From contig JAFXTH010000006.1 in the NCBI GenBank assembly GCA_017525035.1, forward strand, positions 7,714 to 71,713: a stretch of 64,000 nt of DNA, read 5' to 3'. The DNA comes from Bacilli bacterium. Its GTDB lineage: Bacteria; Bacillota_I; Bacilli_A; RF39; UBA660. The notes beneath the pieces are model-generated. The model was not told the DNA's origin and did no database searches. It saw only the letters and a program-made list of their open reading frames with translations. Below are positions 5,507 through 22,000 of the stretch, piece after piece. Made by a program: the position numbers and the translations under genes. Position 1 is the stretch's first letter. The number at the start of each line of letters is the position of its first letter.

Positions 5507-5534
5507 CACTAAATTATTTATAATTCATACATTA
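5507..5534 (+). promoter_or_regulatory. orphan copy of the amidase promoter (sigma-K/E-like AC-N16-CATACATTA)
   Basis: The 32-nt block 5525-5556 (TCATACATTAATATAGGTGATTATGATGAATG) matches 9379-9410 with 2 mismatches. It includes a -10-like CATACAtTA, an AGGTGA RBS and ATGAATG. Confidence 0.4.
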
Positions 5535-5744
5535 ATATAGGTGATTATGATGAATGGCATTGGACTCATTTTGTTTGGAAATTATACTATGAAAGAATGC
5601 CAGATGAATGTAAAAATGAAATGAATAATTATATTGAAACAAAGAAGTCAAACAAAATATCTGATTATAGATTAAATGCTTTACAACGATATAGACCATT
5701 AGTTAAGAACAAGAATAAATAGTTTTTAGATTAACTAATTAACT

Positions 5745-5870
5745 AGCAAGTACTGAATTTGTAATACAAACTCAATTTTGGATTTGAATTCACTGCTTGC
5801 GAGCAAGCACTGAATTTATGGCCAAGTGCCACAAACCCAAATATCTAATGGGAGTTTTTCCCCAATCCCC
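5745..5870 (+). repeat. conserved hairpin-module element, copy R1 (possible structured ncRNA)
   Basis: About 90% identical to 12898-13022. Two AGCAAGYACTGAATTT seeds (5745, 5802). A 15-bp imperfect stem joins 5746-5760 to 5786-5800. It is followed by an AT-rich hairpin plus T-run at 5881-5909. Confidence 0.6.
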
Positions 5871-5916
5871 TTTGCATAAAAATTAAGTTTATTACTTAAT
5901 TTTTTTTTATTCTAAT

Positions 5917-5933
5917 CTCTACTCAAAGTAGAG
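5917..5933. promoter_or_regulatory. perfect palindrome CTCTACT-CAA-AGTAGAG at the -35 position of the XRE-ABC promoter
   Basis: 7-bp arms. It lies about 21 nt upstream of the extended -10 TGTATAAT (5954-5961). Candidate auto-operator for the HTH of the downstream gene. Confidence 0.35.
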
Positions 5934-5979
5934 AAGCAATATTATTGACTTATTGTATAATTAATTTGAGGTGATTTAA

Positions 5980-6963
5980 ATGGACTATGAAAAAATAGGT
6001 ACTTTCATTTTAAATCTTAGAAAAGAAAAGAATATGACACAACAAGAATTAGCAGATAAACTTCATGTAACCGATAAAGCGGTATCAAAGTGGGAAACAG
6101 GAAGAGGTATTCCAGATATTGAAACTATAAAAAATCTTGGAAAATTGTTTAATGTAACAGAAAAAGAATTATTAAATGGTGAAAGAGATTATAAGAAAAA
6201 AGAAATAGATCCTAATCATCACTCTATTGTTCTTGATGTTCAGAATTTATCGAAGTCTTTTGGAAAAAGAAAAATACTAAGTAATGTTAATTTGAAGATA
6301 TATGAAGGAGATATAGTTGGGTTAATTGGTCCTAATGGTGCTGGGAAAACAACTTTAATAAAAACAATTTTAAGTTTATATAAAGCAGATACAGGAACAA
6401 TAAAAATATGTAATTATTTAATAGACAATGAATTAGAAAAGGCTTTATCAAAAGTTGGTTCAATAGTAGAAAATCCTGATTTATATCAAAACATTTCAGG
6501 ATGGAAAAATTTACAAATTGTATGTTTAACAAATCATATAAAAGATACTAGTATTATTAATAGCGTAGTTAAACTTGTTGGACTAGAAGATAGAATAAAA
6601 GATAATGTAAAGAGTTATTCTCTTGGTATGAAGCAAAGACTAGGTCTTGCTGCTGCATTAATACGAAAACCCAAAATACTAATATTAGATGAGCCGACAA
6701 ACGGATTAGACCCATATGGTATCAAAGATTTAAGAAAAATATTAAAATACTTAAGCGAAAAAGAAAATATGAGTATTTTAATAAGTAGCCATATACTTGC
6801 AGAAGTAGAAAATATTTGCGATAGAATAATTATCATAAAAGAAGGAAAGTTATTAAGTAATTTTGGAATAGAAGAAATTAAAAACAAGCATATTAGTTTG
6901 GAAGATGAATTTATAAGGAGAACTAAAAATGTAGAGGAGAATTTGTATAATGAAAATAATTGA
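5980..6963 (+). CDS. XRE-family HTH fused to an ABC transporter ATP-binding domain
   Basis: N-terminus NMTQQELADKLHVTDKAVSKWETGRGIPD (HTH_XRE). Then Walker A GPNGAGKTT, signature YSLGMKQRL, Walker B ILILDEPTNGLD and H-loop SSHIL. Confidence 0.85.
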   Translation: MDYEKIGTFILNLRKEKNMTQQELADKLHVTDKAVSKWETGRGIPDIETIKNLGKLFNVTEKELLNGERDYKKKEIDPNHHSIVLDVQNLSKSFGKRKILSNVNLKIYEGDIVGLIGPNGAGKTTLIKTILSLYKADTGTIKICNYLIDNELEKALSKVGSIVENPDLYQNISGWKNLQIVCLTNHIKDTSIINSVVKLVGLEDRIKDNVKSYSLGMKQRLGLAAALIRKPKILILDEPTNGLDPYGIKDLRKILKYLSEKENMSILISSHILAEVENICDRIIIIKEGKLLSNFGIEEIKNKHISLEDEFIRRTKNVEENLYNENN

Positions 6964-8494
6964 TTTAATAAAAGGAGAATTTATAAAGAATTTCAAAATT
7001 AAAAAAATTATAATAGTCTTAATTATCTTATTACTTTCTATAGTTGGAAAAAATTATATAGATGAGTTGAAGATTACAAATGACAATAAAGCTATTTTAG
7101 AGCAAAGTGTTTCATATTTTAAAAATCAACTTGATTTTTACAAAAGTCATCCTGATACAAATCAAATAAAAAAGGAATGGTATTTATTCTCAAATCAAAA
7201 GAATTATGAAATGTATAATAAACTATTGAAAAGTGAAAAATACAATGATTTATCAACACAAAGCTGGCAACATGAATTAAGTAGACGTATTGTCAAAATT
7301 GATACATTAGTTTTTTGGATAGAAAAATATAAAGCAGATAAAAACGTAGACATTAGTTGGATAAATGAAGATTATGAGTTTACTTTGATGTATCAAACTT
7401 ATTTGGAAAAACTATCAAATATGAGTAATGAAGAATTAAGTCAAGAACAGGATAGGATGTTAAAGACTAAATCCGATTTTGAAAACCTTTTAAAAGATAA
7501 TAAATATTACAAGTATATCGAATATATATTAAATAATAATATAGACGATGCAATTTGGATATACGATATTTTTGAATTAGAAACTAAATATTATGAAGTA
7601 ATTATTGATAATAAAGTAGAGGAAGAAAGTTATTTAGTAAAAAATATTAATCAACTAAGAACATTAGGAGTCTTTAATTATGAAAATAAAAGAGCAAATG
7701 ATTTAAGAGATTCTATATTAAAAAAAGATAGAGAAATATTAAAATATTCAATAGATAAAGTTAAAAAGCAAGATATTTCATATGGAGCAATCAGCGTAGG
7801 TGCAGAATCGATTTATATTAGTACCAAATCTTGCGTTAATGGAATATTAGATTTATCAATTGTAATTATGATATTAGTTGTATTATTAGATGGTAATATT
7901 GTTAGCAAAGAGCATAATAAAGGTACTGAAAAATTATTACTAACAACCTCAAACAAGAGGTGGAAAATTCTACTTAGTAAATTTTTATATCTTATTTTAG
8001 AAACATATATTATCTGGTTTGTTGCATTAATACTTCTATTATTATTTGCAGGATTAAAATATGGATTTAATGATTTAATAACTCCAAAGATTTTATATCA
8101 AAACGGAAAAATTATTGAAGTAAATTATATTATTTATATAATAAAACAAATATTTTATTGCAGTATTCCAGTATTAGCTTTTATATCAATAGTTTTTATG
8201 ATTTCAACGATTACCTTAAATTCTGGACTTACAAATGGATTATGTATGATCTTTGCAATTATTTCACCTTTTATGTGGCATTTTATTTATAATTATCATT
8301 TATCGTTATTATCTTTTTTACCATTTCCTTATTTTATGTTCAGTAGTGTTATCACTGTAACTGAAGATTATTTAGGTTCTGTTGATGTTTCATATGCGTC
8401 AGAAGTATATGGTATTATAATTTCATTAGTTACTTTTGTTACATGTTATATAATATCAAATATAGTATTTATAAAAAGAGATGTTAAAAATTAA
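6950..8494 (+). CDS. ABC-2-type permease with large extracytoplasmic domain
   Basis: Overlaps the upstream ATPase gene by 14 nt. One N-terminal TM helix, an approximately 270-aa soluble region, then 5-6 C-terminal TM helices. Confidence 0.6.
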   Translation: MKIIDLIKGEFIKNFKIKKIIIVLIILLLSIVGKNYIDELKITNDNKAILEQSVSYFKNQLDFYKSHPDTNQIKKEWYLFSNQKNYEMYNKLLKSEKYNDLSTQSWQHELSRRIVKIDTLVFWIEKYKADKNVDISWINEDYEFTLMYQTYLEKLSNMSNEELSQEQDRMLKTKSDFENLLKDNKYYKYIEYILNNNIDDAIWIYDIFELETKYYEVIIDNKVEEESYLVKNINQLRTLGVFNYENKRANDLRDSILKKDREILKYSIDKVKKQDISYGAISVGAESIYISTKSCVNGILDLSIVIMILVVLLDGNIVSKEHNKGTEKLLLTTSNKRWKILLSKFLYLILETYIIWFVALILLLLFAGLKYGFNDLITPKILYQNGKIIEVNYIIYIIKQIFYCSIPVLAFISIVFMISTITLNSGLTNGLCMIFAIISPFMWHFIYNYHLSLLSFLPFPYFMFSSVITVTEDYLGSVDVSYASEVYGIIISLVTFVTCYIISNIVFIKRDVKN

Positions 8495-8555: not shown

Positions 8556-8583
8556 ATTCACGAAAGGAGGAATATTCGTGAAT
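8556..8583 (+). promoter_or_regulatory. 9-bp perfect inverted repeat bracketing RBS and start codon
   Basis: ATTCACGAA-AGGAGGAATA-TTCGTGAAT. The SD sits in the loop and the GTG start (8578) in the 3' arm. Confidence 0.4.
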
Positions 8584-9330
8584 CAAGAAAAAATAGGAAG
8601 GTTTATAAGTGAAAGAAGAAAAATAAAAAAAATGACTCAAGCTGAACTTGGAGAAATACTTGGAGTAAGTGATAAATCAGTATCAAAATGGGAAACTGGA
8701 AAATGCATGCCAGATTTATCATTGTTTCCTGAATTGTGTAAAGTGCTTGATATTACAATTAATGATCTCATGAGTGGTGAAAAAGTAGACAACGAAAAAT
8801 ACATTAACACACTTGAAGTCAATATAGTTAAACTAGCAGATTCCTTAAAAAAGAAAAGAAAAAATAAAATTAAAATGTGCATTATTACTGCTATTATATT
8901 TTTATTTGCTATTTGGGGATATACTGCATATTATAATCTTGCAGAAGAAACTATATCATTTGATGTTGGAATGATGACTTGTAATGTATATAATAATGAA
9001 TTAACTTTTAGTATAAAAGGAACATCGATTTTAAATGAGCATTACACTATAAAAAAAGTAGATGGAAAAGATGTTTATATTTTTAATTGTACACTATTAA
9101 AAAAATATAAAGACTTTTATGCATGGGAATTAAAAAAAGGAATTAATTGTTTAGATGGAGACATTTATTGTAAACAAGGAACTCGTCATAATTTCAAGCT
9201 TAAAGATGACAATATTGATGTATATTATACAGAGTATTCTATAAGTAAATTTGAAAAAGCTACCAATGATGAATTAAAAAATCTTTTAGAAAAATCAAAC
9301 AAAATGGATTGCTCAAATGAAGAAGAATAA
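8578..9330 (+). CDS. membrane-anchored XRE-family HTH protein
   Basis: GTG start behind AAGGAGG. N-terminus KMTQAELGEILGVSDKSVSKWETGKCMPD, a single TM helix (MCIITAIIFLFAIWGYTAYY), then an approximately 130-aa outside domain. Confidence 0.75.
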   Translation: MNQEKIGRFISERRKIKKMTQAELGEILGVSDKSVSKWETGKCMPDLSLFPELCKVLDITINDLMSGEKVDNEKYINTLEVNIVKLADSLKKKRKNKIKMCIITAIIFLFAIWGYTAYYNLAEETISFDVGMMTCNVYNNELTFSIKGTSILNEHYTIKKVDGKDVYIFNCTLLKKYKDFYAWELKKGINCLDGDIYCKQGTRHNFKLKDDNIDVYYTEYSISKFEKATNDELKNLLEKSNKMDCSNEEE

Positions 9331-9360
9331 GAAAAAGATAAACATCTTTTTCTTTTTATT

Positions 9361-9388
9361 CACTTATTAATACAAATCTCATACACTA
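9361..9388 (+). promoter_or_regulatory. sigma-K/E-like promoter of the split amidase gene
   Basis: tCAC-N16-CATACACTA. CATACAnT matches the B. subtilis sigma-E -10 consensus, and AC-N16/17-CATAnnnTA matches the sigma-K consensus. AGGTGA RBS, ATG at 9404. Confidence 0.45.
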
Positions 9389-9403
9389 ATATAGGTGATT
9401 ATA

Positions 9404-9460
9404 ATGAATGAAAGAACTACTAAAAGAGTAGTAGTTGATGCAGGGCATGGAGGACACTGA
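9404..9460 (+). pseudogene. 5' fragment of split N-acetylmuramoyl-L-alanine amidase (codons 1-17, then element-derived His-stop)
   Basis: MNERTTKRVVVDAGHGG-H-stop. DAGHGG is the start of the Amidase_3 motif that continues at 20804. Confidence 0.85.
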
Positions 9461-9564
9461 AAAGCCCAAAATGATAAATGGCTACTGAATCGTGATGTAA
9501 AAGAAGGAATTTTTTAATTCTTACTTTTTTTATGTTATAATATTAATTATGATAGGAGAGTACT

Positions 9565-12090
9565 ATGTTAGAGTTAAAAAATGTTAATAAAATATATAAA
9601 TCTAAGAATGCTAATGATACTGAAGCTTTAAAGAATATCAACATATCTTTTAATAATGTTGGTATGACTTTTATTCTAGGAAAAAGTGGGTGTGGTAAAA
9701 GTACTCTTTTAAACATATTAGGTGGACTTGATATTCCAACAAGTGGAGAAATAGTATTTAAAGGTAAATCATTTAAGTTGTTTAAAAACAATGACTATGA
9801 TAGTTATCGTAATACTTCTGTTGGATTTGTTTTTCAAGAATACAATTTAATCGAAAAGTTTAATGTATTTGATAATGTAGCATATGCTTTAAAACTTCAA
9901 AACAAAAAAATTGATGATAATGTTGTACTAGATGTTTTAGATAAAGTAGGATTAAAAGATCTTGCAAAAAGGAAAGTAAATGAATTATCAGGAGGACAAA
10001 AACAAAGAGTAGCTATTGCTAGAGCTCTTGTTAAGAATCCAAGCATAATTTTAGCAGACGAACCAACAGGAAACTTAGATAGTGAGAGTTCAAAAATGAT
10101 TTTTGACATACTTAAAAATCTTTCACATGAAAGATTAGTAATAGTAGTATCTCATGATGAAGAAAGTGCTAGAACTTATGGAGATAGGATAATAAGCCTT
10201 CAAGATGGAGTAGTAATAAGTGATACTAATCCTATTATTAATCAAGAAGAAAACAATTATACTTTAAAGAAAAATCATTTACCATTTACTGAAGCATTTA
10301 GATTTGCATTAAAAAATATATTTGGTAGAAAAGGTAAGTTAATTTTATCTATAATATTAATATCTTTTGCATTATCATTCTTTGGCTTTGCAGTAATGCA
10401 AAACAAATTAAGAAGTACTAATGAAATAGAAAGAATAATAAATGAATATGATGTAAACTATATTGATATAGAAAAATTAGAGGAGAATTATAGTAATTGT
10501 ATTTTTAAAGGCTATTGGCGTAACTGCTACAATGAAGGAATTATAACAGAAAAAGAATATAATGATTTATCGCAAATAAATGAAACTCCTCTTACTATAA
10601 GATATAGATTTCAAGTATTAAATGCCTATATTAAGCCAATAGAATTATCAGATGAAGAACATAATAAAATGAGTTATTATTATTCAAATTATAAGTATAT
10701 GGGTGCTTTTTCTGAATTAAATAAAGAAGATTTTAATTTTAAATTAATTGGAAGTGTACCAAATACTTATGATGAAATAGTAATAATAAAACCAGTAGCA
10801 GATTACATAATAAAATATGGTGTATATCTAGATAATAATGAAGAATATAAACCACAAAGTTACGAAGAAATAATAAATGATAATAAATATTTAAAATTTG
10901 GTAATGGTAAAGTAAAAATATCAGGAATAATAGATGATGACTTGTCTATATTTGAACCTTTAAAAAATATTAGTAGTGATATAAGAGAAGATAGCTTATC
11001 ACTTGAAAATAAACGATTAATAGAAAAGTATAAATATAAATATCCAGTTCATTTTTATGCTTTAACTGATTTTAAAGATAATATAGAATTAAATGAAAAT
11101 AGTACAAGATATTTTAATATATTAGATAGTAATGATGAATTAAAAACTATAAAAGCTTTTGAACCAATGAAAGTATATACTGAAAATGGACTTATTGATA
11201 TGAAACAAATAGATAAAAGTGGCATAATAGTAAACGAAAACTATTTGGACATTATATCTAAAGGTGATTTCTCTAAAAAAATGAACGATTATATTATTAA
11301 AGGAAAAGATATTGATCCATCAAAATCAAGTGAAGATTATCGTTTAGAATTTGTAACAAATTATATTAAAGAAAATGATATTACTAATAAAATGGTAGCA
11401 TTCTATTTGGCTAAATTATATTCAAATGATGAAAATAATCAAGAAATGCACTTAAAAATATCTGGTGTCATTCTAGATAGTGAAGACTACTATGCTAGTA
11501 AAGAAATACTAAGTCAAGATAGTGATGAAAAATATAATATGTCTTTATATGTATTAACTAAAAATATTAAAGATTATAACAAATACTTTAACGAGTACCC
11601 AATAGATGGAGAACAATATATATCTACAAATGATTTTATTTATAGAATAGCTGAACATGAATTTACTATGAAAGTATTAGCTAAATATATTTTTATAATA
11701 GGTTTAGTATTCTCATTATTTGCTATACTTCAATTATTTAATTTTATAGGTTTATCAATAACTGATAATAAGAAAGAAATAGGAGTTTTAAGAGCTCTTG
11801 GAACAACAAAAAAAGATGTATCAAAAATATATTCAATACAAGGCCTTTTAATTGGATTATTATCATATATGTTATCAATAATTTTGATTATTATCTATTC
11901 TAAAGGAGAAAATGATATTTTTCTTTCAAATTATTTGAAAGAAGTATTTAATTTAGAATTATTTGGCATAACATTTAGTACACTTGCAATAGTATTTGTA
12001 TTCTTTGTAGTAGTTGTATTATTGTCAGTAATAAGTGTAACTTTTAAAATATCTAAGATGAGACCAATAGATGCAATTAATAATAAGTAA
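9565..12090 (+). CDS. fused ABC transporter ATPase-permease (MacB/FtsX type)
   Basis: Walker A GKSGCGKST, signature LSGGQKQRV, Walker B IILADEPTGNLD. Then a TM helix, an approximately 430-aa outside domain, and a C-terminal FtsX block (KKEIGVLRALGTTKKDV). TGTTATAAT promoter at 9533-9541. Confidence 0.85.
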   Translation: MLELKNVNKIYKSKNANDTEALKNINISFNNVGMTFILGKSGCGKSTLLNILGGLDIPTSGEIVFKGKSFKLFKNNDYDSYRNTSVGFVFQEYNLIEKFNVFDNVAYALKLQNKKIDDNVVLDVLDKVGLKDLAKRKVNELSGGQKQRVAIARALVKNPSIILADEPTGNLDSESSKMIFDILKNLSHERLVIVVSHDEESARTYGDRIISLQDGVVISDTNPIINQEENNYTLKKNHLPFTEAFRFALKNIFGRKGKLILSIILISFALSFFGFAVMQNKLRSTNEIERIINEYDVNYIDIEKLEENYSNCIFKGYWRNCYNEGIITEKEYNDLSQINETPLTIRYRFQVLNAYIKPIELSDEEHNKMSYYYSNYKYMGAFSELNKEDFNFKLIGSVPNTYDEIVIIKPVADYIIKYGVYLDNNEEYKPQSYEEIINDNKYLKFGNGKVKISGIIDDDLSIFEPLKNISSDIREDSLSLENKRLIEKYKYKYPVHFYALTDFKDNIELNENSTRYFNILDSNDELKTIKAFEPMKVYTENGLIDMKQIDKSGIIVNENYLDIISKGDFSKKMNDYIIKGKDIDPSKSSEDYRLEFVTNYIKENDITNKMVAFYLAKLYSNDENNQEMHLKISGVILDSEDYYASKEILSQDSDEKYNMSLYVLTKNIKDYNKYFNEYPIDGEQYISTNDFIYRIAEHEFTMKVLAKYIFIIGLVFSLFAILQLFNFIGLSITDNKKEIGVLRALGTTKKDVSKIYSIQGLLIGLLSYMLSIILIIIYSKGENDIFLSNYLKEVFNLELFGITFSTLAIVFVFFVVVVLLSVISVTFKISKMRPIDAINNK

Positions 12091-12117
12091 AAAACTATCT
12101 TGATGATAGTTTTTTTA
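12091..12117. terminator. bidirectional terminator
   Basis: AAAACTATC-TTGAT-GATAGTTTTTTT between convergent genes. Confidence 0.7.
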
Positions 12118-12118
12118 T

Positions 12119-12673
12119 TTATAAAAAGATAAATAATATTAATATTATAGAAACAAATATAGATATAATTAATAATTTATAATCAATTTTATTTTGTTCA
12201 ACAATTTTCTTATTAAGTTCTTCTTTACTACATTCCTTAGAATTATTTAATAATTTTCTATATTTAGACATTATATCTTTGTTAATCAAGCTACTTAATA
12301 ATACTGGATGGTATTTAACAAATAATACCACTAAGATTACTAATAATGGACCACTTAATGGAAATAGCCTTATATATAGTAATATTACCACATCCCATTT
12401 TTTTATACAGTATAATATGAACAGAAACCATAATAATAAATATATAGTTGTTCTAATCATTTTCTTAGAAATTGAATAAAACCAACCAAATAAAAAGTAT
12501 TCATCTTTAGGATTCCCATTGTTTTCAAAATTATATTGAATATACTGTTCTACATCATATGATGAATATTTTTCTGAAAATTCATCTACTATTTTTGAAT
12601 TAAATAAGTTACCACATCTAGGGCAAAAGTTTAATTGCCCTTTGAATTTAGAATTACATTTCGAACATATCAT
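12119..12673 (-). CDS. zinc-ribbon membrane protein (DUF2628-like); paralog of 4864-5445
   Basis: MICSKCNSKF..FCPRCG followed by TM helices. The listed start 12715 overlaps a TGGTATAAT promoter on the minus strand, so ATG 12673 behind GAAAGGA is preferred. Confidence 0.65.
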   Translation of the reverse strand: MICSKCNSKFKGQLNFCPRCGNLFNSKIVDEFSEKYSSYDVEQYIQYNFENNGNPKDEYFLFGWFYSISKKMIRTTIYLLLWFLFILYCIKKWDVVILLYIRLFPLSGPLLVILVVLFVKYHPVLLSSLINKDIMSKYRKLLNNSKECSKEELNKKIVEQNKIDYKLLIISIFVSIILILFIFL

Positions 12674-12741
12674 ATATATTTTCCTTTCATAAAAATTATA
12701 CCATAAAATAGACATTTTAGTTAAATAGTAAGTTACTAGCT

Positions 12742-12897
12742 AGCAAGCACTGAATTTGTCCGACAAAGTAAGTTTTCAGTAATTGCTAATAACAGCAAGC
12801 ACTGAATTTGTCCGACAAAGTAAGTTTTCAGTAATTGCTAATAACAGCAAGCACTGAATTTGTCCGACAAAGTAAGTTTTCAGTAATTGCTAATAAC
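12742..12897 (+). repeat. three perfect tandem copies of a 52-nt hairpin unit
   Basis: Unit AGCAAGCACTGAATTTGTCCGACAAAGTAAGTTTTCAGTAATTGCTAATAAC at 12742, 12794 and 12846. The arms AGCAAGCACTGAA / TTCAGTAATTGCT pair at 11 of 13 positions. Confidence 0.95.
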
Positions 12898-13022
12898 AGC
12901 AAGTACTGAATTTGTAATACAAACTCAATTTGGATTTTAATTCACTGCTTGCAAGCAAGCACTGAATTTATGTCCAAGTGCCACAAATCCAAATATTCAA
13001 TGGAGGTTAAACCCCAATCCCC
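12898..13022 (+). repeat. conserved hairpin-module element, copy R2
   Basis: About 90% identical to 5745-5870 (1 indel, about 11 substitutions). Seeds at 12898 and 12954. Confidence 0.6.
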
Positions 13023-13071
13023 AGCCCTTTTCTATTAATAAAAAATATGATACAATATTATCAAGTTAGAG

Positions 13072-13800
13072 GTGGTCAAAGTGATAGTAGTATCTTCTAT
13101 ATTAATTATACTTCTATTATCAATTTATCTTATTGAAAGAAAGCAATTAAAAAAGGAAACCAAAAAGAAATTATTACTAACATTGTTTGTAGTATTATTA
13201 ACTAATATTATATCTTTTAGCCCCATTGCATTAATACTTGTTTTAATAGTTATCATACTGATATATTCATGGAAAGAAATAAATGAAAAAACAAAGAAAA
13301 AAATTTACAAAATATGTGCTATTACTTTAGGAATCACATTATTATTTTTCATTTTAACACCTAGGTGGCTTTACTATCGAGTATTGTACCTTGATGATAG
13401 AGTAAAAATAACTGCTAAGATATATGTAGATGGAGAACAAATGAATATAGATGAAGATTTTGTTACTATAGGTGGTAAAGGAATAGGAAAAAAACACATC
13501 AGCAGTGGTGATGATGGAATAAAAATATCATTCAAGGGAAACGAATATGAAAATTATCATATTAATATGAAAATAGAACCATATCACAATGATTATTACA
13601 TCGACTTATTACTTCAACATTGGAATTGGTGGGATATAAATCGTATTGATGTAGTAATAAATATAGACACAAAAGAAAACACAATTAGTTATTCTGTAGA
13701 AAATAGATTTATTTCTGAAGAAAAAAATTATACAGAAGATGTATTAACATTGAGTGAAACAAAAGAATTATCAACAATTAATAAACTGTTTCTTGGGTAA
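13072..13800 (+). CDS. membrane protein, unknown function
   Basis: GTG start (13072 or 13081) behind AGAGGTGG. TGATACAAT extended -10 at about 13047-13055. 3-4 TM helices then an approximately 130-aa soluble domain. Confidence 0.55.
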   Translation: MVKVIVVSSILIILLLSIYLIERKQLKKETKKKLLLTLFVVLLTNIISFSPIALILVLIVIILIYSWKEINEKTKKKIYKICAITLGITLLFFILTPRWLYYRVLYLDDRVKITAKIYVDGEQMNIDEDFVTIGGKGIGKKHISSGDDGIKISFKGNEYENYHINMKIEPYHNDYYIDLLLQHWNWWDINRIDVVINIDTKENTISYSVENRFISEEKNYTEDVLTLSETKELSTINKLFLG

Positions 13801-13840
13801 CTAATTGAATTTAAGTAAAAAAATAAAGAGATAATTCTCT

Positions 13841-14608
13841 TTATTTTAATTGTTCTAATATTTCGATAATTTCATCTTTTGTGTAATTATAGCTTATAAA
13901 TTGATAGTAAACATTATCATATACAAAAGCTGCAGTCATTCTAGTTTTATCCCAATTATTTTCATAAATAACTGCCTTAGTATTAAGATTCTTTATTTCA
14001 TATACTAGATCTAATTCTTTTTCACCTGTTGCATCTTTTCCTTCTAAGAATGGATATATGTATCTTTCTTCAGCACACTTATTTAGAATAGATATATCTA
14101 CAGAAATAACTTTTCCTGTTTTATCTCCGTTCTTACCAAATTGACCATTAGTATTATCAATAAATTCAGACCACCACAAGTGGACTACTCCAATTTCTCC
14201 ATTACTATTTAAAGATGTACTATATCCTATTGATTTACTAGTTGTGTAATCATAGTCTAAGATATGGAAGCCAAGATTTTGTTCGACTTCATTGTGTGTC
14301 ATACTAACAAAATTTTCACTTTTTCTAGCATTAATGTTTATTTCTTTAAAATTTGCATTTTCCACAATATTTACTTTCGTTCCATCTTCAAACTCAACAC
14401 CTGTAGACCAACTTTTAAATAACTCTGCTATTTGTTTTGCATATACAATTGATATAGATATTGTAAATACTAATACTATTAAACCCAAAGAATAACCAAG
14501 TTTTTTATAATTATATTTTCTTTTGCTAATAGTTTTTTCCATTATTTTGTTTTCCAAATTATCACTTATTCTTATTGATTTGTAAGAATCACTAATTTTA
14601 TTATTCAT
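13841..14608 (-). CDS. putative anti-sigma factor (single-pass, DUF4367-like outside domain)
   Basis: Overlaps the stop of the upstream sigma gene by 8 nt. A short cytoplasmic N-terminus, one TM helix (LGYSLGLIVLVFTISISIVYA), then an approximately 190-aa outside domain. Confidence 0.5.
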   Translation of the reverse strand: MNNKISDSYKSIRISDNLENKIMEKTISKRKYNYKKLGYSLGLIVLVFTISISIVYAKQIAELFKSWSTGVEFEDGTKVNIVENANFKEININARKSENFVSMTHNEVEQNLGFHILDYDYTTSKSIGYSTSLNSNGEIGVVHLWWSEFIDNTNGQFGKNGDKTGKVISVDISILNKCAEERYIYPFLEGKDATGEKELDLVYEIKNLNTKAVIYENNWDKTRMTAAFVYDNVYYQFISYNYTKDEIIEILEQLK

Positions 14609-15080
14609 TATTTTCCTCCTTAATAATTTCCTTTAATTTTTTTCTTGCTCTATAAAGAATTGTTTGAATATTAGTTTCTGTTTTTTTCATTATACTTGAT
14701 ATTTCTCTAATTCTATAATTTTCATAATAATATAAAAAAATAACAAGTCTTTCATCTTTAGAGAGTTTATTTATTTCATCTAGAAGCTCACATTCTTTAT
14801 TATCAACTTTTAAAATATTTTCCTCTTTTTCTGTTAAAGTACATATCTTTCTTTTCCAAGATGATAAGAATATAGTTTTACAATTATTAATGGTTATTTT
14901 GATTAACCATTTTTTAATTTCAGTATCGTTACATTCAAGAATTTTCTTTTTTTTATATAGTTTTATGAAAACATTTTGAACTACATCATCAGAGTCTGCA
15001 ATATTTTTTGTATAACTATATGCTAATCTATAGATATCATTTTTATATAAATTAAAAATTCTTAAGAATTGTTCATCCAT
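14601..15080 (-). CDS. ECF-like sigma-70 family RNA polymerase sigma factor
   Basis: Region 2 (IYRLAYSYTKNIADSDDVVQNVFIKLY) and region 4 HTH (YENYRIREISSIMKKTETNIQTILYRARKKLK). ATG 15080 behind GGAGG is preferred over the listed 15128. Confidence 0.8.
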   Translation of the reverse strand: MDEQFLRIFNLYKNDIYRLAYSYTKNIADSDDVVQNVFIKLYKKKKILECNDTEIKKWLIKITINNCKTIFLSSWKRKICTLTEKEENILKVDNKECELLDEINKLSKDERLVIFLYYYENYRIREISSIMKKTETNIQTILYRARKKLKEIIKEENNE

Positions 15081-15270
15081 GATTATCCTCCATATATTGA
15101 AAAGCTTTTCACTATAATAACTATTCATTATTATAAAATATCACATAATATTTAAAAAAATATAAATAATAATACATTACAAATAAAAAACTACACTATT
15201 AGTACAATATTAGAACAAAAGAAATTTTGATTTCTTCTTTTAAATGTTATAATAAAAAAGGGGTGATTTT

Positions 15271-16698
15271 ATGGATGATGATTTTCTAATTGAATATATA
15301 GAACATGAAGTAGAAAATGGTTGTATCGATTTTAAAAAAGATATTTATGATTTTGATGTTCCAAAATGCAAGGAAGATTTTTTAGTCGATGTTATATCTT
15401 TTGCAAACAGTCATATTAATGGTGATAAATATATAATAACCGGAATTAAGCTACACAAAGATAATTCAAGAGACTTTAATGGAATAACTGAGTCCAAAAT
15501 TAAAGATGGTGCTGATTATCAGAGTATAGTAAATGATAATATAGAGCCAAATATAGTAGTTGATTTTAAAATAATTGAATATAAAAACAAAAAATATGGT
15601 ATTTTTAGAATTGGTAAAGAGAATCAAGATCAACCATACTTATTGAGTAAGCAATTTCTCAATTTGCAAAAGGGATTTATAAGAATAAGAAAAGGTCAAA
15701 AAAATGAAAACATTACAAGAAGAGATTTTGACTTATACTATAAAATTAAAGATTTAAATGATTATAGCAATATTCATATTAAAGGAATAGTTGATGGAAA
15801 AATAAGTGATAAATATCAAATAAATCAATACAATGATAATTTGAATTTTGAAAAGGCAAAGTCATTAATAAATGAAACTATAGTAGAAATAAAGAAAATT
15901 AAGTTAGCCAAAAGCTCTAATTTTTTGGCATTTGGGGATTTATTGTCACTGGATGAAAAAGAAATAGAAACAATTAAAACATATGCACAATTATATAGTA
16001 TAGTTTTAACTGATGATTTTTTTGATATAGGTAATATTAGGATTTTTACTGGTCCATATTCATCAGCAAGTTTATATGGAAGCAAAACTGAAGAAAAAAA
16101 ATATAAATTAATACGTAAGTTGATTACTATGATTTCAAGTTTTTTAGGATTTGATGAGTATTATAAAAAGATTAATTCTATTTATTACACAGAATTATTA
16201 ATAAAAAATGAAGGAAAAAAATTTGATGAAGATATTGAAGTAACATTAAAAATTGAGAAAAGTAAATTATTAAATTATTCTAAATTTCCTGTACCACCAG
16301 AGTCAATAATAGAAAAAATAATAGATGATAAATTATTAGATAAACATTTGAATAATCAAAAGGTAAATGGTGTTAATAATTATACTTGTAAAATTCCGAG
16401 AATATTTCCAACTTATCCAATGAAAATAAAATTGCCAATTGGATATTCGAAACCAGATTATAAAGAATATGTAGATTACTATATAAACTATGTTCAAACA
16501 ATTGCAGATTATGATGTAAGTGAGGATGAAGATTATTATTATTTAAAATATAATCAAAGGGAGATAAAACCTAATGAATTAATACATTTACCAGCTAGGA
16601 TTATTTTTATTGATAAACCTAATGAAATAGAATATGAAATTAAAACAAAATATAATTCAAATATAAATAAAGGGAAAATATCATTGATTGAAAAATAA
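15271..16698 (+). CDS. AlbA_2/Schlafen-like (divergent AAA-type DNA/RNA-binding) N-domain protein with unknown C-terminal half
   Basis: N-terminus EHEVENGCIDFKKDIY...DVISFANSHINGDKYIITGIK...YGIFRIG..QPYLL resembles the PF04326 pattern (E..LEFK, then aNt.GG.l.iGv). The C-terminal 270 aa have no recognisable motif. Confidence 0.45.
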   Translation: MDDDFLIEYIEHEVENGCIDFKKDIYDFDVPKCKEDFLVDVISFANSHINGDKYIITGIKLHKDNSRDFNGITESKIKDGADYQSIVNDNIEPNIVVDFKIIEYKNKKYGIFRIGKENQDQPYLLSKQFLNLQKGFIRIRKGQKNENITRRDFDLYYKIKDLNDYSNIHIKGIVDGKISDKYQINQYNDNLNFEKAKSLINETIVEIKKIKLAKSSNFLAFGDLLSLDEKEIETIKTYAQLYSIVLTDDFFDIGNIRIFTGPYSSASLYGSKTEEKKYKLIRKLITMISSFLGFDEYYKKINSIYYTELLIKNEGKKFDEDIEVTLKIEKSKLLNYSKFPVPPESIIEKIIDDKLLDKHLNNQKVNGVNNYTCKIPRIFPTYPMKIKLPIGYSKPDYKEYVDYYINYVQTIADYDVSEDEDYYYLKYNQREIKPNELIHLPARIIFIDKPNEIEYEIKTKYNSNINKGKISLIEK

Positions 16699-16782
16699 AA
16701 ATTATATAATTAAAAAAAAGATTAGAAATCAATGTTTCTAATCATTTTTAATTTGTTATAATATTTATCCAAATTCTCTTTT

Positions 16783-17190
16783 TTATTTAAAGTAATCCTT
16801 GATTGCTGCTTTAATAGTTTTTTGATCATTTTTACTTTGGGATTTAAACCATTTTGTATTGGTTATGTCATTACTTGCAAAATAACTAGAGAATAATTTT
16901 TTATAAGTGTTCTGCCTTGCCATATATTCTTCCATTTCTGGATCTATGGTAGTTTCTATATCTTCTTTAGAAAAACCTGCAATAGTCATTAATTCCCTTA
17001 AATCTAAGTTAAGTACATTTGCCATCTTTTTAAGAGTTAAGGCATTTGTACTTTTTCTTTCTCCATTTTCCAATCTAGCTATGGTATTATTACCAACTCC
17101 TATTTGCCTAGCTAATTCTCTTTGTGATATTCCTTTCTTTTCTCTAGCTTCTTTAATAATATCAGCTAATTCTCTTTTATTATTTGTCAA
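16783..17190 (-). CDS. XRE/cI-like HTH repressor
   Basis: GISQRELARQIGVGNNTIARLENGERKST, a classic HTH_3. It is the second gene of a leftward operon facing a divergent promoter region. Confidence 0.8.
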   Translation of the reverse strand: MTNNKRELADIIKEAREKKGISQRELARQIGVGNNTIARLENGERKSTNALTLKKMANVLNLDLRELMTIAGFSKEDIETTIDPEMEEYMARQNTYKKLFSSYFASNDITNTKWFKSQSKNDQKTIKAAIKDYFK

Positions 17191-17201
17191 ATTATCACCT
17201 T

Positions 17202-17930
17202 CTAATTTGTTTTCCTTTTATAATTATTTTTTAGTTGCTTTTCTATTTTCTTAGATAAACTTTTAACTAATTGTTCATAGTTTTTAGATAAATATAATTC
17301 ATTATCAATTATACTCAATCCAATTATTGCTTTCTGTGTATATGCTCTTTCAAATACTATCCTTTTTTCACTTATTAATTCTTTTAATACTTGCCCACCA
17401 TCATCCGTACAAATGACAAATGTTATTTCAAGTCCTCCAACTTTTGTTTCTTTCATAATGCTATTGTAAAAATCTACCATTTTATCGATAGCTACTTCCT
17501 TATTTTTTGAATTAAATGATTTTGTATGATGAGTAACTATAATACTATAACAATCATTGTGATACGTTTTAATGTATAAAGATAAATCTTTATCTGATTT
17601 TTTTAATTCAAAGTTATGTTGTTTCATTGATTTACTAAAATCTTTAAAAAAATGCTCGTATGTCTTATAGGGACTTACATAAACATCTGGTTGAACAATC
17701 TTTTTCTTTTCTTTTTTAACTATAATATTCTTTTTTTCAGCGATACACATTAAAATTATCAAAAATAAACTTGCAATCCAAGCTACAATTCCAAAAATAG
17801 TAGGGATTAAATCTGAATAATGAAATATTAGACAACCCAAGCCAATTATAAAAAACAGAGACCAACTAATAATAACAATGTAAAAAAATAGATAATATAA
17901 TATTTTCAATAATAGCGTTTTTTTATCCAT
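17202..17930 (-). CDS. membrane protein, unknown function (co-operonic with the repressor)
   Basis: Three N-terminal TM helices then an approximately 150-aa cytoplasmic domain. No HExxH, so it is not an ImmA-type protease. Confidence 0.55.
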   Translation of the reverse strand: MDKKTLLLKILYYLFFYIVIISWSLFFIIGLGCLIFHYSDLIPTIFGIVAWIASLFLIILMCIAEKKNIIVKKEKKKIVQPDVYVSPYKTYEHFFKDFSKSMKQHNFELKKSDKDLSLYIKTYHNDCYSIIVTHHTKSFNSKNKEVAIDKMVDFYNSIMKETKVGGLEITFVICTDDGGQVLKELISEKRIVFERAYTQKAIIGLSIIDNELYLSKNYEQLVKSLSKKIEKQLKNNYKRKTN

Positions 17931-17941
17931 CTCATTATCAC

Positions 17942-18040
17942 CACAATTATAGTATTACACAAATTGTGTCCTTTTGCAACAAAAATGTTGACTTTTATTT
18001 TCTATCCATGTTATATTGTAGTAAAGATATTGTGTCTTTA
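17942..18040. promoter_or_regulatory. divergent promoter/operator region (lysogeny-switch-like)
   Basis: Half-sites CACAAT (17942), CACAA-A-TTGTG (17958-17968), and ATTGTGTC at 17963 and 18029. Rightward promoter: TTGACT (17988-17993), 17-nt spacer, TTATAT (18011-18016). Leftward TATAAT on the minus strand at 17946-17951. Confidence 0.55.
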
Positions 18041-18071
18041 GGAAACAATACAACAAATAAGGAGGGGAAAT

Positions 18072-18335
18072 ATGCATGAAAAGAAAGAACTAGATATGAG
18101 TAATCATAGGATATGGAAAGATAAGAATATTAAACCTGAATGTAAAAGAATATTTGCTTATCTATATTCAAAAGGATTTAATGTATCAGATTTCTATTTA
18201 AATGTGGGAGACATACAACAAGTAGTAAGAATTAAAAATGTTGGATTAAGAAAGAATCTAAGTACATTAGAAGATAATAAGTATCTAATATTTAGAGAAT
18301 ATGATACAGGAATGTATGAAATAAGTATTTGTTAG
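18072..18335 (+). CDS. small winged-helix-like protein
   Basis: AAGGAGGGG RBS. 87 aa. CKRIFAYLYSKGF...IQQVVRIKNVGLRKNLSTLEDNKYL resembles phage/plasmid wHTH replication or regulatory proteins. Confidence 0.5.
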   Translation: MHEKKELDMSNHRIWKDKNIKPECKRIFAYLYSKGFNVSDFYLNVGDIQQVVRIKNVGLRKNLSTLEDNKYLIFREYDTGMYEISIC

Positions 18336-18457
18336 ATTGGTAAAACACTAATAAATAATGGTACAGTAAATGTTTTGAGATTTATGTTAGTACCTTTTCT
18401 ATTAGATATAGAAAAAACATCGGTAAGAAAAGTCCTAATTTAATAATAAGGAGAATT

Positions 18458-18928
18458 ATTATATTAAATGGTCAATTTATCATTACTCCTAGAATATTAT
18501 TTAATGATGAGAACTTATCAAGAACTGAAATAGATGTTCTTAGTCTCATTATTTCACTTACCTTAAAAAAAGGATTTTGTTTTGCGAGTAATGACTATTT
18601 AAAAAAATATATTAATACATCAGAAAGAACAATTACTAGTTCATTGTCAAAATTAAAACAATTAAAATATATAATAATTAAAACAAATAACAATAAAAGA
18701 AGAATATATCTTAATAGAGATAAGATACCAGCAGAAATTTCTAAATGGATAGCAAGAAATTGCAATGGAGAGGTAGAAAAAACTTGCGACTATAAAATAA
18801 AGAATAAAAATAAAAAAGAGAATAAAAACATTAATCCATATTGGTTAGATCATCCTGAAATGATTAAAGAACCGAGCATTACTGAAGAAGAAAGAAAAGA
18901 ATTGGAAGACTTACTTAATAATTTCTAA
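18458..18928 (+). CDS. HTH (replisome-organizer/DnaD-N-like) protein with non-canonical or damaged start
   Basis: The frame is open from 18359. The conserved-looking N-terminus GQFIITPRILFNDENLSRTEIDVLSLIISL...ERTITSSLSKLKQLKYI lies upstream of the first ATG (18644). AAGGAG at 18448 is followed only by ATT/ATA codons in frame, and ATG 18468 is out of frame by 1 nt. Confidence 0.45.
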   Translation: MILNGQFIITPRILFNDENLSRTEIDVLSLIISLTLKKGFCFASNDYLKKYINTSERTITSSLSKLKQLKYIIIKTNNNKRRIYLNRDKIPAEISKWIARNCNGEVEKTCDYKIKNKNKKENKNINPYWLDHPEMIKEPSITEEERKELEDLLNNF

Positions 18929-18948
18929 TAAAAAGGGGGAATGATTAA

Positions 18949-19089
18949 ATGGAGGTAGTATATAATGTAAAAAATAAATATAAGACAAATGAATTTAGTT
19001 CAACTGATGACATGAAAAAAATAATTAATATTAAACTAATAAATGTCATTATGAAATTAGAAAAACAAAAATATCTATTAAACAATTAA
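18949..19089 (+). CDS. 46-aa ORF directly upstream of the recombinase (speculative directionality-factor candidate)
   Basis: AAAAGGGGGA RBS 8 nt upstream. MEVVYNVKNKYKTNEFSSTDDMKKIINIKLINVIMKLEKQKYLLNN. No homology can be asserted. Confidence 0.25.
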   Translation: MEVVYNVKNKYKTNEFSSTDDMKKIINIKLINVIMKLEKQKYLLNN

Positions 19090-19094
19090 CGAAA

Positions 19095-19114
19095 ATATGT
19101 TATATATAACATAT
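19095..19114. promoter_or_regulatory. perfect 20-bp palindrome upstream of recombinase gene
   Basis: ATATGTTATA|TATAACATAT, 35 nt upstream of the recombinase start. Confidence 0.5.
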
Positions 19115-19149
19115 CATCGATTAAGTAGCCATTTATCCGAAATGGAGGA

Positions 19150-20757
19150 ATGGCTATGGTAGAAAAGGTAGGTGTATATTGTAGATTATCTGATGAAGAT
19201 AGAGATAAAGTAAATAAAACTGATGATAGTGATAGCATAATAAATCAAAGAAGTATGTGTTTAAAATATGCCAATCAAAATGGTTGGGATGTAGTAGATA
19301 TATATTCTGATGATGACTTTTCTGGAGCTGGAACTTATAGACCAGATTTTGAAAGACTTATTAAAGATTGTGAAAGTGGAAAAATTAACCTTGTTCTTTG
19401 TAAATCTCAATCAAGATTTTCAAGAGATATGGAAGTAATAGAAAGATACCTTCATAATAAGTTCATAGAGTGGGGTGTAAGATTCGTTAGTATCGTAGAT
19501 AATGCAGATACTAGCATTGAATCAAACAAGAAATCTAGACAGATAAATGGGCTTATAAACGAGTGGTATTTAGATGACTTATCACAAAATATTAAAAAGT
19601 CATTAAAGAACAAAAGAGAAGATGGTTTGTTTATGGGTAGCTTTGCTTCTTATGGATATGAAAGAGATGAAGAAGATTATCATAAACTAATAATTGATCC
19701 AGTAGCAGCAGAAGTTGTTAGAAAGATATTTCAAATGTATGCAGAAGGATATGGATATCACAGAATATGTGTTTATTTAAACAATAATAAGATTCCACCA
19801 AGATCCATTTATAAAAAACAAAAAGGTAGTAAATTTGTTTGTGGAAGTTGTGATTATGATAATGTTATGTGGAATCCAGATACAATTGCTCAAATATTAA
19901 GAAATGAAGTATATATTGGTAATTTAGTTCAAGGAAAAACAACACATGTTAGTTATAAAAATCATAAAAAGAAAAATGTTCCTCAAAAAGAATGGTGCAA
20001 GATAGAAAATACCCATGAACCAATTATTGATATGGAAACCTGGAATAAGGTCCAAGAAATACTAAATAATCACTTTAAGACAACCAAGAATAAGCAAATG
20101 ACTTATTTCACAAAAAAAGTGTATTGCAGTTGTTGTGGTAAAGCATTTATGAGAAATGTTTATAGTGTTAAATCAGAGAAAACTGGAAAAAGAGCATATA
20201 TGCAATGTAAAGGAAATAAAAAGTATCATATTTGCTCAAATAATAAAGCAATTAGAATGGATAAACTCGAAGAAATAGTATTAAAAGAAATAAATGATTT
20301 ATTAAAGAATTACTATGATAAGAATAATTTAAAAGATCTCTATGAAAAAAGATGTTTACAAGAAACAAATAATATTGATTCAATAAAAAATCTAGAAAAA
20401 GAAAAAGAAGAACTAAATAAAAAGATTTCTACTAATAAAAACTATTATAGAAATCTATTTGAAGAAAAAGTAAAAGGTGTAATTTCTGAAGATATGTTTC
20501 AAATGATGTCGAAAGACTATTTCAATGAAATCGAAAATATGATGATTAGAATTGAAGTAATTGATAATGAGATAAAAGAGATAAAAAAAGACAAAATTGA
20601 TAAGAAACAAGCTACAGATATATTAAATAAATATAGACACATTAAAAAGTTGAATAAAGTAATTCTAGATGAATTTATTGATAAGATTTTTATAGGAGAA
20701 ATTGATAAAAACAATAATACAAGAGATATAGAAATAATATGGAACTTTGAGTTCTAA
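19150..20757 (+). CDS. large serine recombinase
   Basis: N-terminal resolvase domain with VGVYCRLSDEDRD (catalytic Ser), DSDSIINQR and SQSRFSRD. Recombinase domain, then Cys-rich zinc ribbon (CSCCGK...CKGNKKYHICSN), then a long coiled-coil C-terminus. The start may be ATG 19156 behind GGAGG. Confidence 0.92.
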   Translation: MAMVEKVGVYCRLSDEDRDKVNKTDDSDSIINQRSMCLKYANQNGWDVVDIYSDDDFSGAGTYRPDFERLIKDCESGKINLVLCKSQSRFSRDMEVIERYLHNKFIEWGVRFVSIVDNADTSIESNKKSRQINGLINEWYLDDLSQNIKKSLKNKREDGLFMGSFASYGYERDEEDYHKLIIDPVAAEVVRKIFQMYAEGYGYHRICVYLNNNKIPPRSIYKKQKGSKFVCGSCDYDNVMWNPDTIAQILRNEVYIGNLVQGKTTHVSYKNHKKKNVPQKEWCKIENTHEPIIDMETWNKVQEILNNHFKTTKNKQMTYFTKKVYCSCCGKAFMRNVYSVKSEKTGKRAYMQCKGNKKYHICSNNKAIRMDKLEEIVLKEINDLLKNYYDKNNLKDLYEKRCLQETNNIDSIKNLEKEKEELNKKISTNKNYYRNLFEEKVKGVISEDMFQMMSKDYFNEIENMMIRIEVIDNEIKEIKKDKIDKKQATDILNKYRHIKKLNKVILDEFIDKIFIGEIDKNNNTRDIEIIWNFEF

Positions 20758-20794
20758 ATACTAATAATAAATTTGGACTTTTCCGATGCCCCGA

Positions 20795-22000
20795 CATGGA
20801 GGAAGCGATCCAGGTGCTGTTAATGGAAATATAAAAGAAAAAGATTTTAACTTACAAGCAGCAAATTATATATATGAAAGATTAAATGAATTAGGAGTTC
20901 CAGTAGCAATTACTAGAATAGATGATGAAGATATTGGAAGAAGTGAAAGACTAAGAAGAATGGTTAATTCATTTGGTAATGATAAAGATGTGATAATTCT
21001 TTCTAATCATATTAACGCAGGAGGTGGAGAAGGAGCAGAAGTAGTTTATTCTTTAAGAAATGATGACACACTTTCTAAAATGATACTTGATGAAATAGGA
21101 AATGCTGGTCAAATAGAAAGAAAAGTTTATCAAAGAAGATTACCAGAAAATCCAAGTAAAGATTATTATTACATAATGCGTGAGACTCCAAATACTGAAG
21201 CAGTATTAATTGAATATGGCTTTATTGATAACCCAAGAGATTTGTATAAACTTCAAAATAATTTATATGATTATGCTGAAGGTGTTGTTAAAGCTGTTAC
21301 TAATTATATAGGTGTACCTTATATTCCAAAGGAAGAAACAATTGTAGATACAAATACTTATATTGTTAAAAGTGGAGATACACTTTATTCAATTGCAAGA
21401 GCTTATAACACTACGGTGGATGAATTAAAAAGAATTAATAGGTTATCTAATAATGTTTTATCTATTGGGCAAACTTTATTGATACCGGAAACTGAAGAAG
21501 AACTTCAAAGTGATTATTTAATATATACTGTTAAGAAGGGTGATACATTATATTCAATTGCAAGAGCATTTAACGTAACTGTGGATGAGATAATTACGCT
21601 AAACAGATTAAATAGTATTGGCTTATCAATTGGTCAACAATTGTTAATCCCAGAAAATGGAATTCAAATAATCGGAGTTGTTGATTACACAATAAAACCT
21701 GGTGACAGTTTATGGAAAATTGCTAATAGATGTGGTGCAACTGTTGATGACATTGTTAAACTAAACAACCTAGATTCAACAATTATTTATCCAGGACAAA
21801 TAATAAAGTTATCTGAGCCATGCGCAGCAAAACAAAATTACGAAGAATATGAAACTTACATAGTTAAAAGAGGCGATACACTTTATTCAATTTCAAAAAT
21901 GTTTAACACCACTCCAAGTGTGATAAAAGAATTAAATAATTTAAATACTGATATGCTTCAAATAAATCAGATGCTTATATTACCAAAAGAAAATGTCTAA
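20795..22000 (+). pseudogene. 3' part of split N-acetylmuramoyl-L-alanine amidase (Amidase_3 + 4 LysM)
   Basis: HGGSDPGAVNGNIKEKDFNL...LSNHINAGGGEGAEVVY (Amidase_3 zinc ligands), followed by four LysM repeats (Y.VK.GDTLYSIA..). The listed ATG 20786 lies in element DNA and has no SD. Confidence 0.88.

Follow-up and report, generated by a model that had tools for sequence, protein, structure and literature searches.

The locus described here lies in a 64,000-nucleotide stretch (the window) of contig JAFXTH010000006.1, from a Bacilli bacterium of the UBA660 lineage, and consists of a LysM amidase gene in two pieces, between which stand a gene for a large serine recombinase and the other genes of a putative mobile element. 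The 5′ piece of the amidase gene encodes MNERTTKRVVVDAGHGG, and in the integrated state a stop codon ends this frame after 18 codons. When 9404–9454 is joined to 20804–22000, the result is an open frame for a 415-amino acid (aa) protein in which MNERTTKRVVVDAGHGG runs directly into SDPGAVNG and which comprises an Amidase_3 domain and four LysM domains; no signal peptide was found in it. At both boundaries stands the same sequence, CATGGAGGA (9446–9454 and 20795–20803), and since the neighbouring bases differ on both sides, the identity extends over exactly 9 bp. The flanks are made up of ordinary host genes, encoding an ABC transporter, a transglutaminase-like protein, an HD protein, a DUF218 protein and VanY. 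All coordinates that a sequence-only reading had given for the 9-bp core and for the arms next to it, TTGGACTTTTCCGATG (20773–20788) and CACTGAAAAGCCCAA (9455–9469), proved correct when re-read from the window. On the evidence assembled below, we consider it very likely that the segment between the two CA dinucleotides with which the core copies begin is an integrated mobile element, and that its own serine recombinase inserted its circular form into the LysM amidase gene.

The protein encoded at the right end of this segment matched four Pfam families, namely Resolvase (PF00239, E = 1.4e-24), Recombinase (PF07508, E = 1.4e-30), Zn_ribbon_recom (PF13408, E = 4e-10) and DUF4368 (PF14287). Its R-x-S14 motif (yCRLS14) aligned with the catalytic-serine motifs of TnpX (yeRLS) and TP901-1 (ytRVS). 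The catalytic domain of TnpX was its best relative of solved structure, and TndX was 32% identical to it over the full length. The four domains and the aligned motif agree with the sequence-only reading, which had taken the 19150–20757 protein for a large serine recombinase.

To rebuild the attachment site of the circular form (attP), we joined 20745–20803 to 9455–9504 and scored every centre by counting how many of the 25 positions to either side of it were complementary. The rebuilt site reached 17 of 25 complementary positions with its centre on CA (9446–9447 / 20795–20796, core positions 1–2); other centres near the core scored 1–10 when even and at most 11 when odd. Across the window the mean was 7.4 (sd 2.4), and a score of 17 was reached by 14 of ~64,000 centres (2.2e-4), or in 0.18% of 8-centre blocks if any of the eight dinucleotides within the 9-bp core is allowed as centre. 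The sequence-only reading had proposed inverted arms around the core and a comparison with shuffled sequence; shuffling one attP arm gave P = 1.5e-5, so that both this control and the distance from the background of 7.4 speak for the proposed arms. Some details of that reading fared less well. Its agreement at about 13 of 16 positions between TTGGACTTTTCCGATG and the reverse complement of CACTGAAAAGCCCAA is obtained with a 1-nt gap only, the ungapped count being 11/16; the tight part of the arms (TTGGaCTTTTC / TTGGgCTTTTC) agrees at 10 of 11 positions. Likewise, of the centre that it had placed on CA/AT, the CA part stands (17/25) and the AT part falls (8). We also rejected AT, or the CATG palindrome, as the centre of the dyad, given scores of 8 for AT and 0–1 for TG as compared to 16–17 for CA.

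A family scan with one genome per species returned 80 loci whose integrases are 46–84% identical. At 44 of these, the stop codon of the integrase gene is followed within ~100 bases by the P arm and the CAYGGNGG...GAY of an amidase gene, and we therefore take the whole family to enter the His codon of the GHGG motif. At ten loci, an element is complete to both ends (8.1–11.0 kb; integrases 74–84% identical), and the attP sites rebuilt from them scored 16–19/25, all on the same CA. This register is kept despite divergence of the P′ arm (for example, ATAGGATAAATCCAA in the closed genome G002 versus CACTGAAAAGCCCAA in the window). Read toward the centre, the half-sites of nearly all 11 elements, the window element included, carry TTTGGAyTTTTC (−23 to −12), CC (−6/−5) and A (−1), with the arms symmetric in nearly all 11 at −23 to −18, −16 to −12, −6, −5 and −1.

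The same 11 elements allowed us to narrow the point of exchange. The left and right junctions (attL and attR) are identical in 11/11 elements only at CA (0, 1), GG (3, 4), +7 and −5; mismatches between them occur at +2 in two elements, at +5 in nine and at −1 in six. Exchange is therefore confined to CA or GG, and CA alone is the centre of the dyad, from which we infer that CA is the exchange point. The crossover proposed by the sequence-only reading, somewhere within the sequence common to attL and attR, is thus kept and narrowed to the left-hand edge of the core. In most sister elements the two ends have no more than CATGG in common, which suggests that the 9-bp identity exceeds what the enzyme would need and that only CA would have to match. 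The further 7 bp in the window arise because the inner P′ arm, TGGAGGA, resembles two Gly codons; the 9-bp identity is partly coincidental, in that the host happens to use GGA GGA at this point.

Integrases of the same family also occupy short (175–185 codon) CwlD-like Amidase_3 genes, as seen in eight attR regions (loci L039, L045, L060, L074, L077, L084, L094 and L097). The choice of target therefore follows the GHGG codons and not one orthologue.

The integrated, empty and joined states all have counterparts in nature. For the integrated state, a 404-aa open reading frame (ORF) that starts within the P arm (MPRHGG...) is letter-identical on 11 or more contigs, which come from at least 6 samples, with the integrase upstream wherever the contig extends far enough; ERZ28653687 and ERZ28653461 are among the samples that contain the window strain. 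For the empty state, an exact look-up of the rebuilt 415-aa protein and of the 535-aa integrase returned no exact match, and a homology search with the rebuilt amidase found an intact 414-aa protein (P0002; 99% identical, beginning MNERTTKRVVVDAGHGGSDPGA) in related strains. Two contigs that carry the intact amidase are syntenic to the window, with flanks 98.9% and 97.7% identical, and at the place of the element they hold GATGCAGGG-CATGGAGGA-AGTGATCC, which is the predicted empty site (attB) with one synonymous difference and a single copy of the core. Empty attB sites were also found in sister species.

For the joined state, we scanned metagenome contigs with the attP pattern of the family and recovered a 9,859-nt contig (Ga0352976_1036818, L136) whose integrase is 82% identical. 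Its order is integrase, then AAATTTGGACTTTTCCGATACCTCGA-CA-TGGAGGAATAGGATAAATCCAAAAAT, then the left end of an element, with the core CATGGAGGA at the join of P and P′ and with no amidase DNA. Placed on the integrated element of G002, its last and first bases fall 26 nt apart, so that the contig is a circular permutation of the sister element; it represents the joined form, more likely as a circle that has been excised than as a tandem copy. The same pattern matched nothing among viral contigs. Taken together, the empty attB, the junction on at least 11 metagenome contigs and the P-CATGGAGGA-P′ of the sister circle uphold the view of the sequence-only reading that this is a genuine insertion, not an assembly artefact or a gene fusion.

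These observations suggest the following course of events. The TnpX/TndX-like recombinase would insert the circular element into the amidase gene, at the His codon of GHGG. One recombinase dimer would bind attP, an imperfect palindrome of ~50 bp with the half-site consensus TTTGGAyTTTTCmGwATyCCnsCA, and a second would bind attB within the coding sequence GATGCnGGn-CA-TGGnGGnnnnGAYCCnGG. Both sites would be cut at the central, non-palindromic CA, after which the half-sites would rotate and rejoin to give attL and attR. The scheme builds on the anatomy of the four sites, the conserved register of the dyad, the natural empty site and the natural joined circle of a sister element; its chemistry and the exact cut positions are presumed by analogy with other large serine recombinases. 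The features to which it refers, together with those of the remaining locus, are collected in Table 1.

Table 1. Features of the element and of the split amidase gene (positions are those of the window)
Feature	Position	Strand	Remarks
Promoter-like −10 CATACACTA (9380–9388), ribosome-binding site and ATG (9404) of the split amidase gene	9380–9406	+	
Amidase 5′ fragment	9404–9454	+	17 codons, MNERTTKRVVVDAGHGG
attL	9421–9472	+	B arm 9421–9445, crossover CA 9446–9447, P′ arm 9448–9472
Probable crossover dinucleotide CA, left copy	9446–9447	+	Centre of the dyad; attL = attR in 11/11 elements
Element DNA	9448–20794	+	Two CA copies 11,349 bp apart
Variable cargo	9565–17930		Fused ABC ATPase-FtsX permease, membrane proteins, extracytoplasmic function (ECF) sigma factor and putative anti-sigma factor, AlbA_2 protein, XRE repressor
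XRE-type repressor, divergent from the integrase operon	16783–17190	−	HTH_3, E = 1.5e-17; weakly conserved in 7/10 sister elements
orf87, first gene of the integrase module	18072–18335	+	44–57% identical in 10/10 sister elements; no Pfam match
HTH_36-domain gene	18374–18928	+	53% identical to a 163-aa HTH_36 protein of the G002 element
46-aa ORF (orf46), directly upstream of the integrase	18949–19089	+	Strong ribosome-binding site; aligned in 11/11 elements
Large serine recombinase, TnpX/TndX-like, 535 aa	19150–20757	+	PF00239, PF07508, PF13408, PF14287
attR	20770–20821	+	P arm 20770–20794, crossover CA 20795–20796, B′ arm 20797–20821
Amidase 3′ fragment, open	20804–22000	+	Amidase_3 and four LysM; ratio of non-synonymous to synonymous substitution rates (dN/dS) 0.07–0.22 versus orthologues
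Second integration hot spot of the gene family (NAGGGEGAE codons)	21017–21041	+	Empty in the window genome

We next considered what kind of element this is. Scans with Pfam and PHROGs detected no phage structural, conjugation or relaxase genes within it. A prophage was rejected, given that PHROGs matched only the integrase and the repressor, that Pfam matched no phage genes and that the flanks are ordinary host genes. The cargo of the window element is not common to the sister elements, each of which has a different one, and in three of them (L044, L061 and L066) a Mob_Pre relaxase gene lies near the left end. Because of these relaxases, the family is best described as one of integrative, mostly mobilizable elements that would combine a TnpX-like recombinase and the Tn4451 plan with one conserved coding target.

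Several side observations concern the cargo of relatives. On the joined contig, positions 2744–7453 encode a PnuC-like nicotinamide mononucleotide transporter, a nucleoside deoxyribosyltransferase-like protein, an adenylosuccinate synthetase and an NrtR-like regulator, and the Mob_Pre gene is present only as remnants. One relative (G007:C19, L119) has two copies of attL 4.1 kb apart, each with the amidase promoter, the 5′ end and the P′ arm; behind the first comes an ECF-sigma block that shares 85% identity with window positions 12954–15201, and no integrase or attR lies between the two. In another (G003:C2:79000-114000, L120/L121), attL is followed by an ABC-transporter block 80% identical to 9530–12809, and there is no integrase. 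Both copies look decayed or rearranged, and the cargo of the window element appears to be a mosaic. Three identical 52-nt tandem units lie within the window element at 12742–12897, and the same repeat stands at the end of the G007 contig, after its second attL. Beside the element, a 250-aa XRE-HTH membrane-protein gene (8565–9355) directly upstream of the amidase is missing from the two empty-site strains (L137 and L138), in which the amidase comes directly after an ABC-2 permease, so that the strains differ by a second insertion or deletion next to the element.

Only the right-hand 2.7 kb are common to the elements; they contain orf87, the HTH_36 gene, the 46-aa ORF and the integrase. The HTH_36 gene is open, with no ATG, GTG or TTG before 18644 in the window strain, and it is called as 184 aa in two strain variants. 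In a strain 1.2% apart, a single substitution has created TTG, and at the position of an ATT in the window G002 reads ATG. A non-canonical start codon or weak expression would be conceivable for this gene. The 46-aa ORF sits between the HTH_36 gene and a TATAAT-type promoter before the integrase, and its product, like those of orf87 and the HTH_36 gene, is a candidate directionality factor. The promoters of the module look sigma-A-like, with TTGACT-N17-TATATT for the rightward operon and TATAAT just upstream of the integrase.

Certain points weigh against the interpretation of the locus as an element inserted by its own recombinase in the manner proposed. The dyad of attB is at chance level (7/25), and the outer arm motif in attB shows the expected inward shift of 5 bp only weakly: scored with the outer-arm matrix, B′ was best of 19 shifts at +5 yet with a negative score, and B had no peak there, a result that we take as a hint only. 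The free circle is that of a sister element and not of the window element, and no Mob_Pre or other relaxase gene was detected in the window element or in the rest of the assembly. Finally, GG (9449–9450) is removed as the exchange point by the centre of the dyad alone, not by identity. Exchange at GG (9449–9450 / 20798–20799) rather than at CA nonetheless seems very improbable. GG is the sole other dinucleotide identical between attL and attR in 11/11 elements; centred on it, the dyad in the window scores 8–9/25 against 17 for CA, the arms of 10/10 sister elements keep the CA register, and a GG centre would set the conserved TTGGA/TCCAA motifs asymmetrically, 3 bp off. Lower still, to the point of being negligible, is the probability that the junctions stem from chimeric assembly or gene fusion and that the dyad arose by chance. 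The genome is indeed a metagenome-type assembly in 24 contigs, and beyond this we found no positive support for a chimera or fusion, whereas the identical junction recurs in at least 11 contigs from several samples, 10 complete sister elements, as well as the closed genome G002, have the same architecture, the empty site is as predicted, and the P-values of the dyad speak against chance. A milder alternative is that the window copy is a stranded remnant, integrated by the serine recombinase as proposed and now inherited only vertically, with excision and transfer lost. The lack of a relaxase gene in the element and the assembly, the HTH_36 gene without a canonical start codon in the window strain, the decayed relatives in G003 and G007, and the presence of the same insertion in strain variants ~1.2% apart would fit such a state. 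We nevertheless judge it improbable, given that the integrase, orf87, orf46 and both attachment sites are intact, that the arms match the family consensus, and that empty and occupied alleles occur side by side at 98–99% flank identity, which argues for recent movement.

The element family inhabits uncultured gut Bacilli with small genomes. The host assembly (G000) comprises 1.25 Mb in 24 contigs, is 88% complete and encodes Spo0A and SpoIVA; relatives with integrases of the family are gut metagenome-assembled genomes labelled Bacilli, Tenericutes, Clostridium sp. CAG:417 and Candidatus Fimihabitans. A search of all contigs of the host assembly with the Amidase_3 profile matched only the split gene and detected no CwlD-like gene. 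The same profile search in nine genomes of the genus showed that in seven the LysM amidase is interrupted by a serine-recombinase element or by two of them, with all amidase fragments free of stop codons. The dN/dS of the 3′ amidase pieces ranged from 0.07 to 0.34, as for intact copies, and was 0.097 for the close pair G013/G002, in both of which the gene is split. Relics occur as well, as attL without an integrase in G003 and as a pseudogenised paralogue in G016.

Two further observations concern the amidase gene itself. Upstream of it, CATAnnnTA stands 6–9 nt before the ribosome-binding site in 9 of 11 target genes, as compared to a background of 0.68 per kb per strand; this motif resembles the −10 element of mother-cell sigma factors, and CATACACTA in the window may be a −10 element of the sigma-E/K type. 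Downstream, 12 of the 41 amidase genes occupied at the first site and readable to the end have a second break 79–92 codons on, always at SNHINAGGG(E/D)G. In G002 (L128, G002:C1:845700-858000), the second break is occupied by a 9.8-kb element whose serine recombinase is a different one (34% identical), and the amidase gene there is in three open pieces. Past the second break, the frames run on as conserved (Q/H)(S/C)VTN, which suggests a shared P′ arm.

Such recurrent splitting raises the question of whether the element has been domesticated or is tolerated as the intervening element of a sporulation gene, similar to skin, SPbeta, vfbin, vrin or gin, whose excision in the mother cell rebuilds an amidase that is possibly CwlC-like. 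This possibility is compatible with the attP reconstruction and concerns the biology of excision. It would accord with Spo0A and SpoIVA in the host, with the split gene being the only Amidase_3 gene found in the assembly, with an amidase that lacks a signal peptide and has CATAnnnTA conserved before the ribosome-binding site in 9/11 target genes, with open fragments throughout the seven of nine genomes in which the LysM amidase is split, and with the low dN/dS of the 3′ fragments (0.07–0.34, and 0.097 for the split pair). There is, moreover, precedent for intervening elements that are not phages and whose shared 9-nt core lies within an inverted repeat, gin being one (PMC5595907). On the other hand, a motif scan detected no conserved sporulation-type −10 motif (CATAnnnTA) upstream of the integrase module, and its sigma-A-like promoters with a divergent XRE gene form the ordinary switch layout of a mobile element. 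The relaxases and varied cargo of the sister elements indicate horizontal mobility, strains of the same species with an empty site show that splitting is here neither a fixed nor an old condition, relics exist in G003 and G016, and short CwlD-like amidases are also targeted, as simple recognition of a motif predicts. On balance, we regard programmed excision as rather unlikely, though less so than a stranded copy. The same low credence is due to a broader form of the idea, in which the amidase gene, with its mother-cell-type promoter, would be a standing landing pad for two unrelated serine-recombinase families, one entering at GHGG and one at NAGGGEG (both sets of codons encode conserved Amidase_3 motifs), and excision in the mother cell would restore it; what speaks for this is that most species of the genus keep the fragments intact and under purifying selection. 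If programmed rejoining during sporulation were true, it would add a new target gene, with up to two elements per gene and with elements that are mobilizable and not phage-derived, and it would extend programmed gene rearrangement to uncultured gut lineages.

Returning to the element as a mobile one inserted by its own recombinase, the locus offers a natural large serine recombinase of which all four attachment sites are seen in nature and whose probable crossover was traced to one dinucleotide by comparison alone. About 10 natural attP sites and dozens of natural attB variants provide material for recombination assays and for studies of how a coding motif is recognized. They also illustrate a host-range strategy, in that the family targets codons that the host cannot change, GHGG being a signature at the start of the Amidase_3 domain.

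Among known systems, the closest parallels are Tn4451/Tn4453 (with TnpX and the Mob/Pre relaxase TnpZ) and Tn5397 (with TndX) of clostridia, which likewise use a large serine recombinase that ends in a DUF4368 domain. The Tn4451 type further shares the pairing with Mob_Pre, as in the sister elements, a circular joined form, as in the sister contig, and a 2-bp crossover. The crossover dinucleotide of TnpX and TndX is GA, in contrast to the CA of the window family, and the identity to TndX is only ~32%. Whereas Tn4451 and Tn5397 use several sites that resemble the ends of the element, the window family uses one conserved coding target, GHGG; the window copy also differs from Tn4451 in having neither a relaxase nor a resistance gene, and cargo varies between elements. 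The integrases of phiC31, Bxb1, TP901-1 and A118/LI, as well as SprA of SPbeta, have the same domain plan and use a ~50-bp imperfectly palindromic attP with a non-palindromic central dinucleotide, and their attB shares little with attP beyond that dinucleotide, as in the window family. These model integrases are nevertheless distant (E = 1e-4 to 1e-12 against solved chains), and the window element is not a phage. The structures of LI integrase gave rise to a rule by which the spacing of attP and attB differs by 5 bp, and this is weakly visible in the window family.

SCCmec elements use Ccr recombinases to enter rlmH. Streptococcal integrative and mobilizable or conjugative elements with serine recombinases are described as small, devoid of conjugation genes, placed in a conserved host gene and variable in cargo (PMC5357655, PMC5704250). 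The window family is unlike both in host clade, target gene and recombinase lineage. The intervening elements skin (SpoIVCA), SPbeta (SprA/SprB), vfbin, vrin and gin (GirC/GirX) likewise lie in a coding region of a spore-former, where precise joining restores the frame, and gin is not a phage either and has its 9-nt core placed within an inverted repeat (PMC5595907; PMC4191935). The Amidase_3 LysM amidase is not among the cited targets of such elements (sigK, spsM, spoVFB, spoVR and gerE), and the window family differs from them in being horizontally mobile and polymorphic within a species, with programmed excision only a candidate. In the open-access text of the literature, we found no description of serine-recombinase elements directed at amidase genes. 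The mechanism thus appears ordinary for a large serine integrase, and was to be expected once the integrase had been seen, whereas the amidase target seems previously undescribed; the locus is of value because its sites are defined precisely and because the amidase gene has been split repeatedly in this clade.

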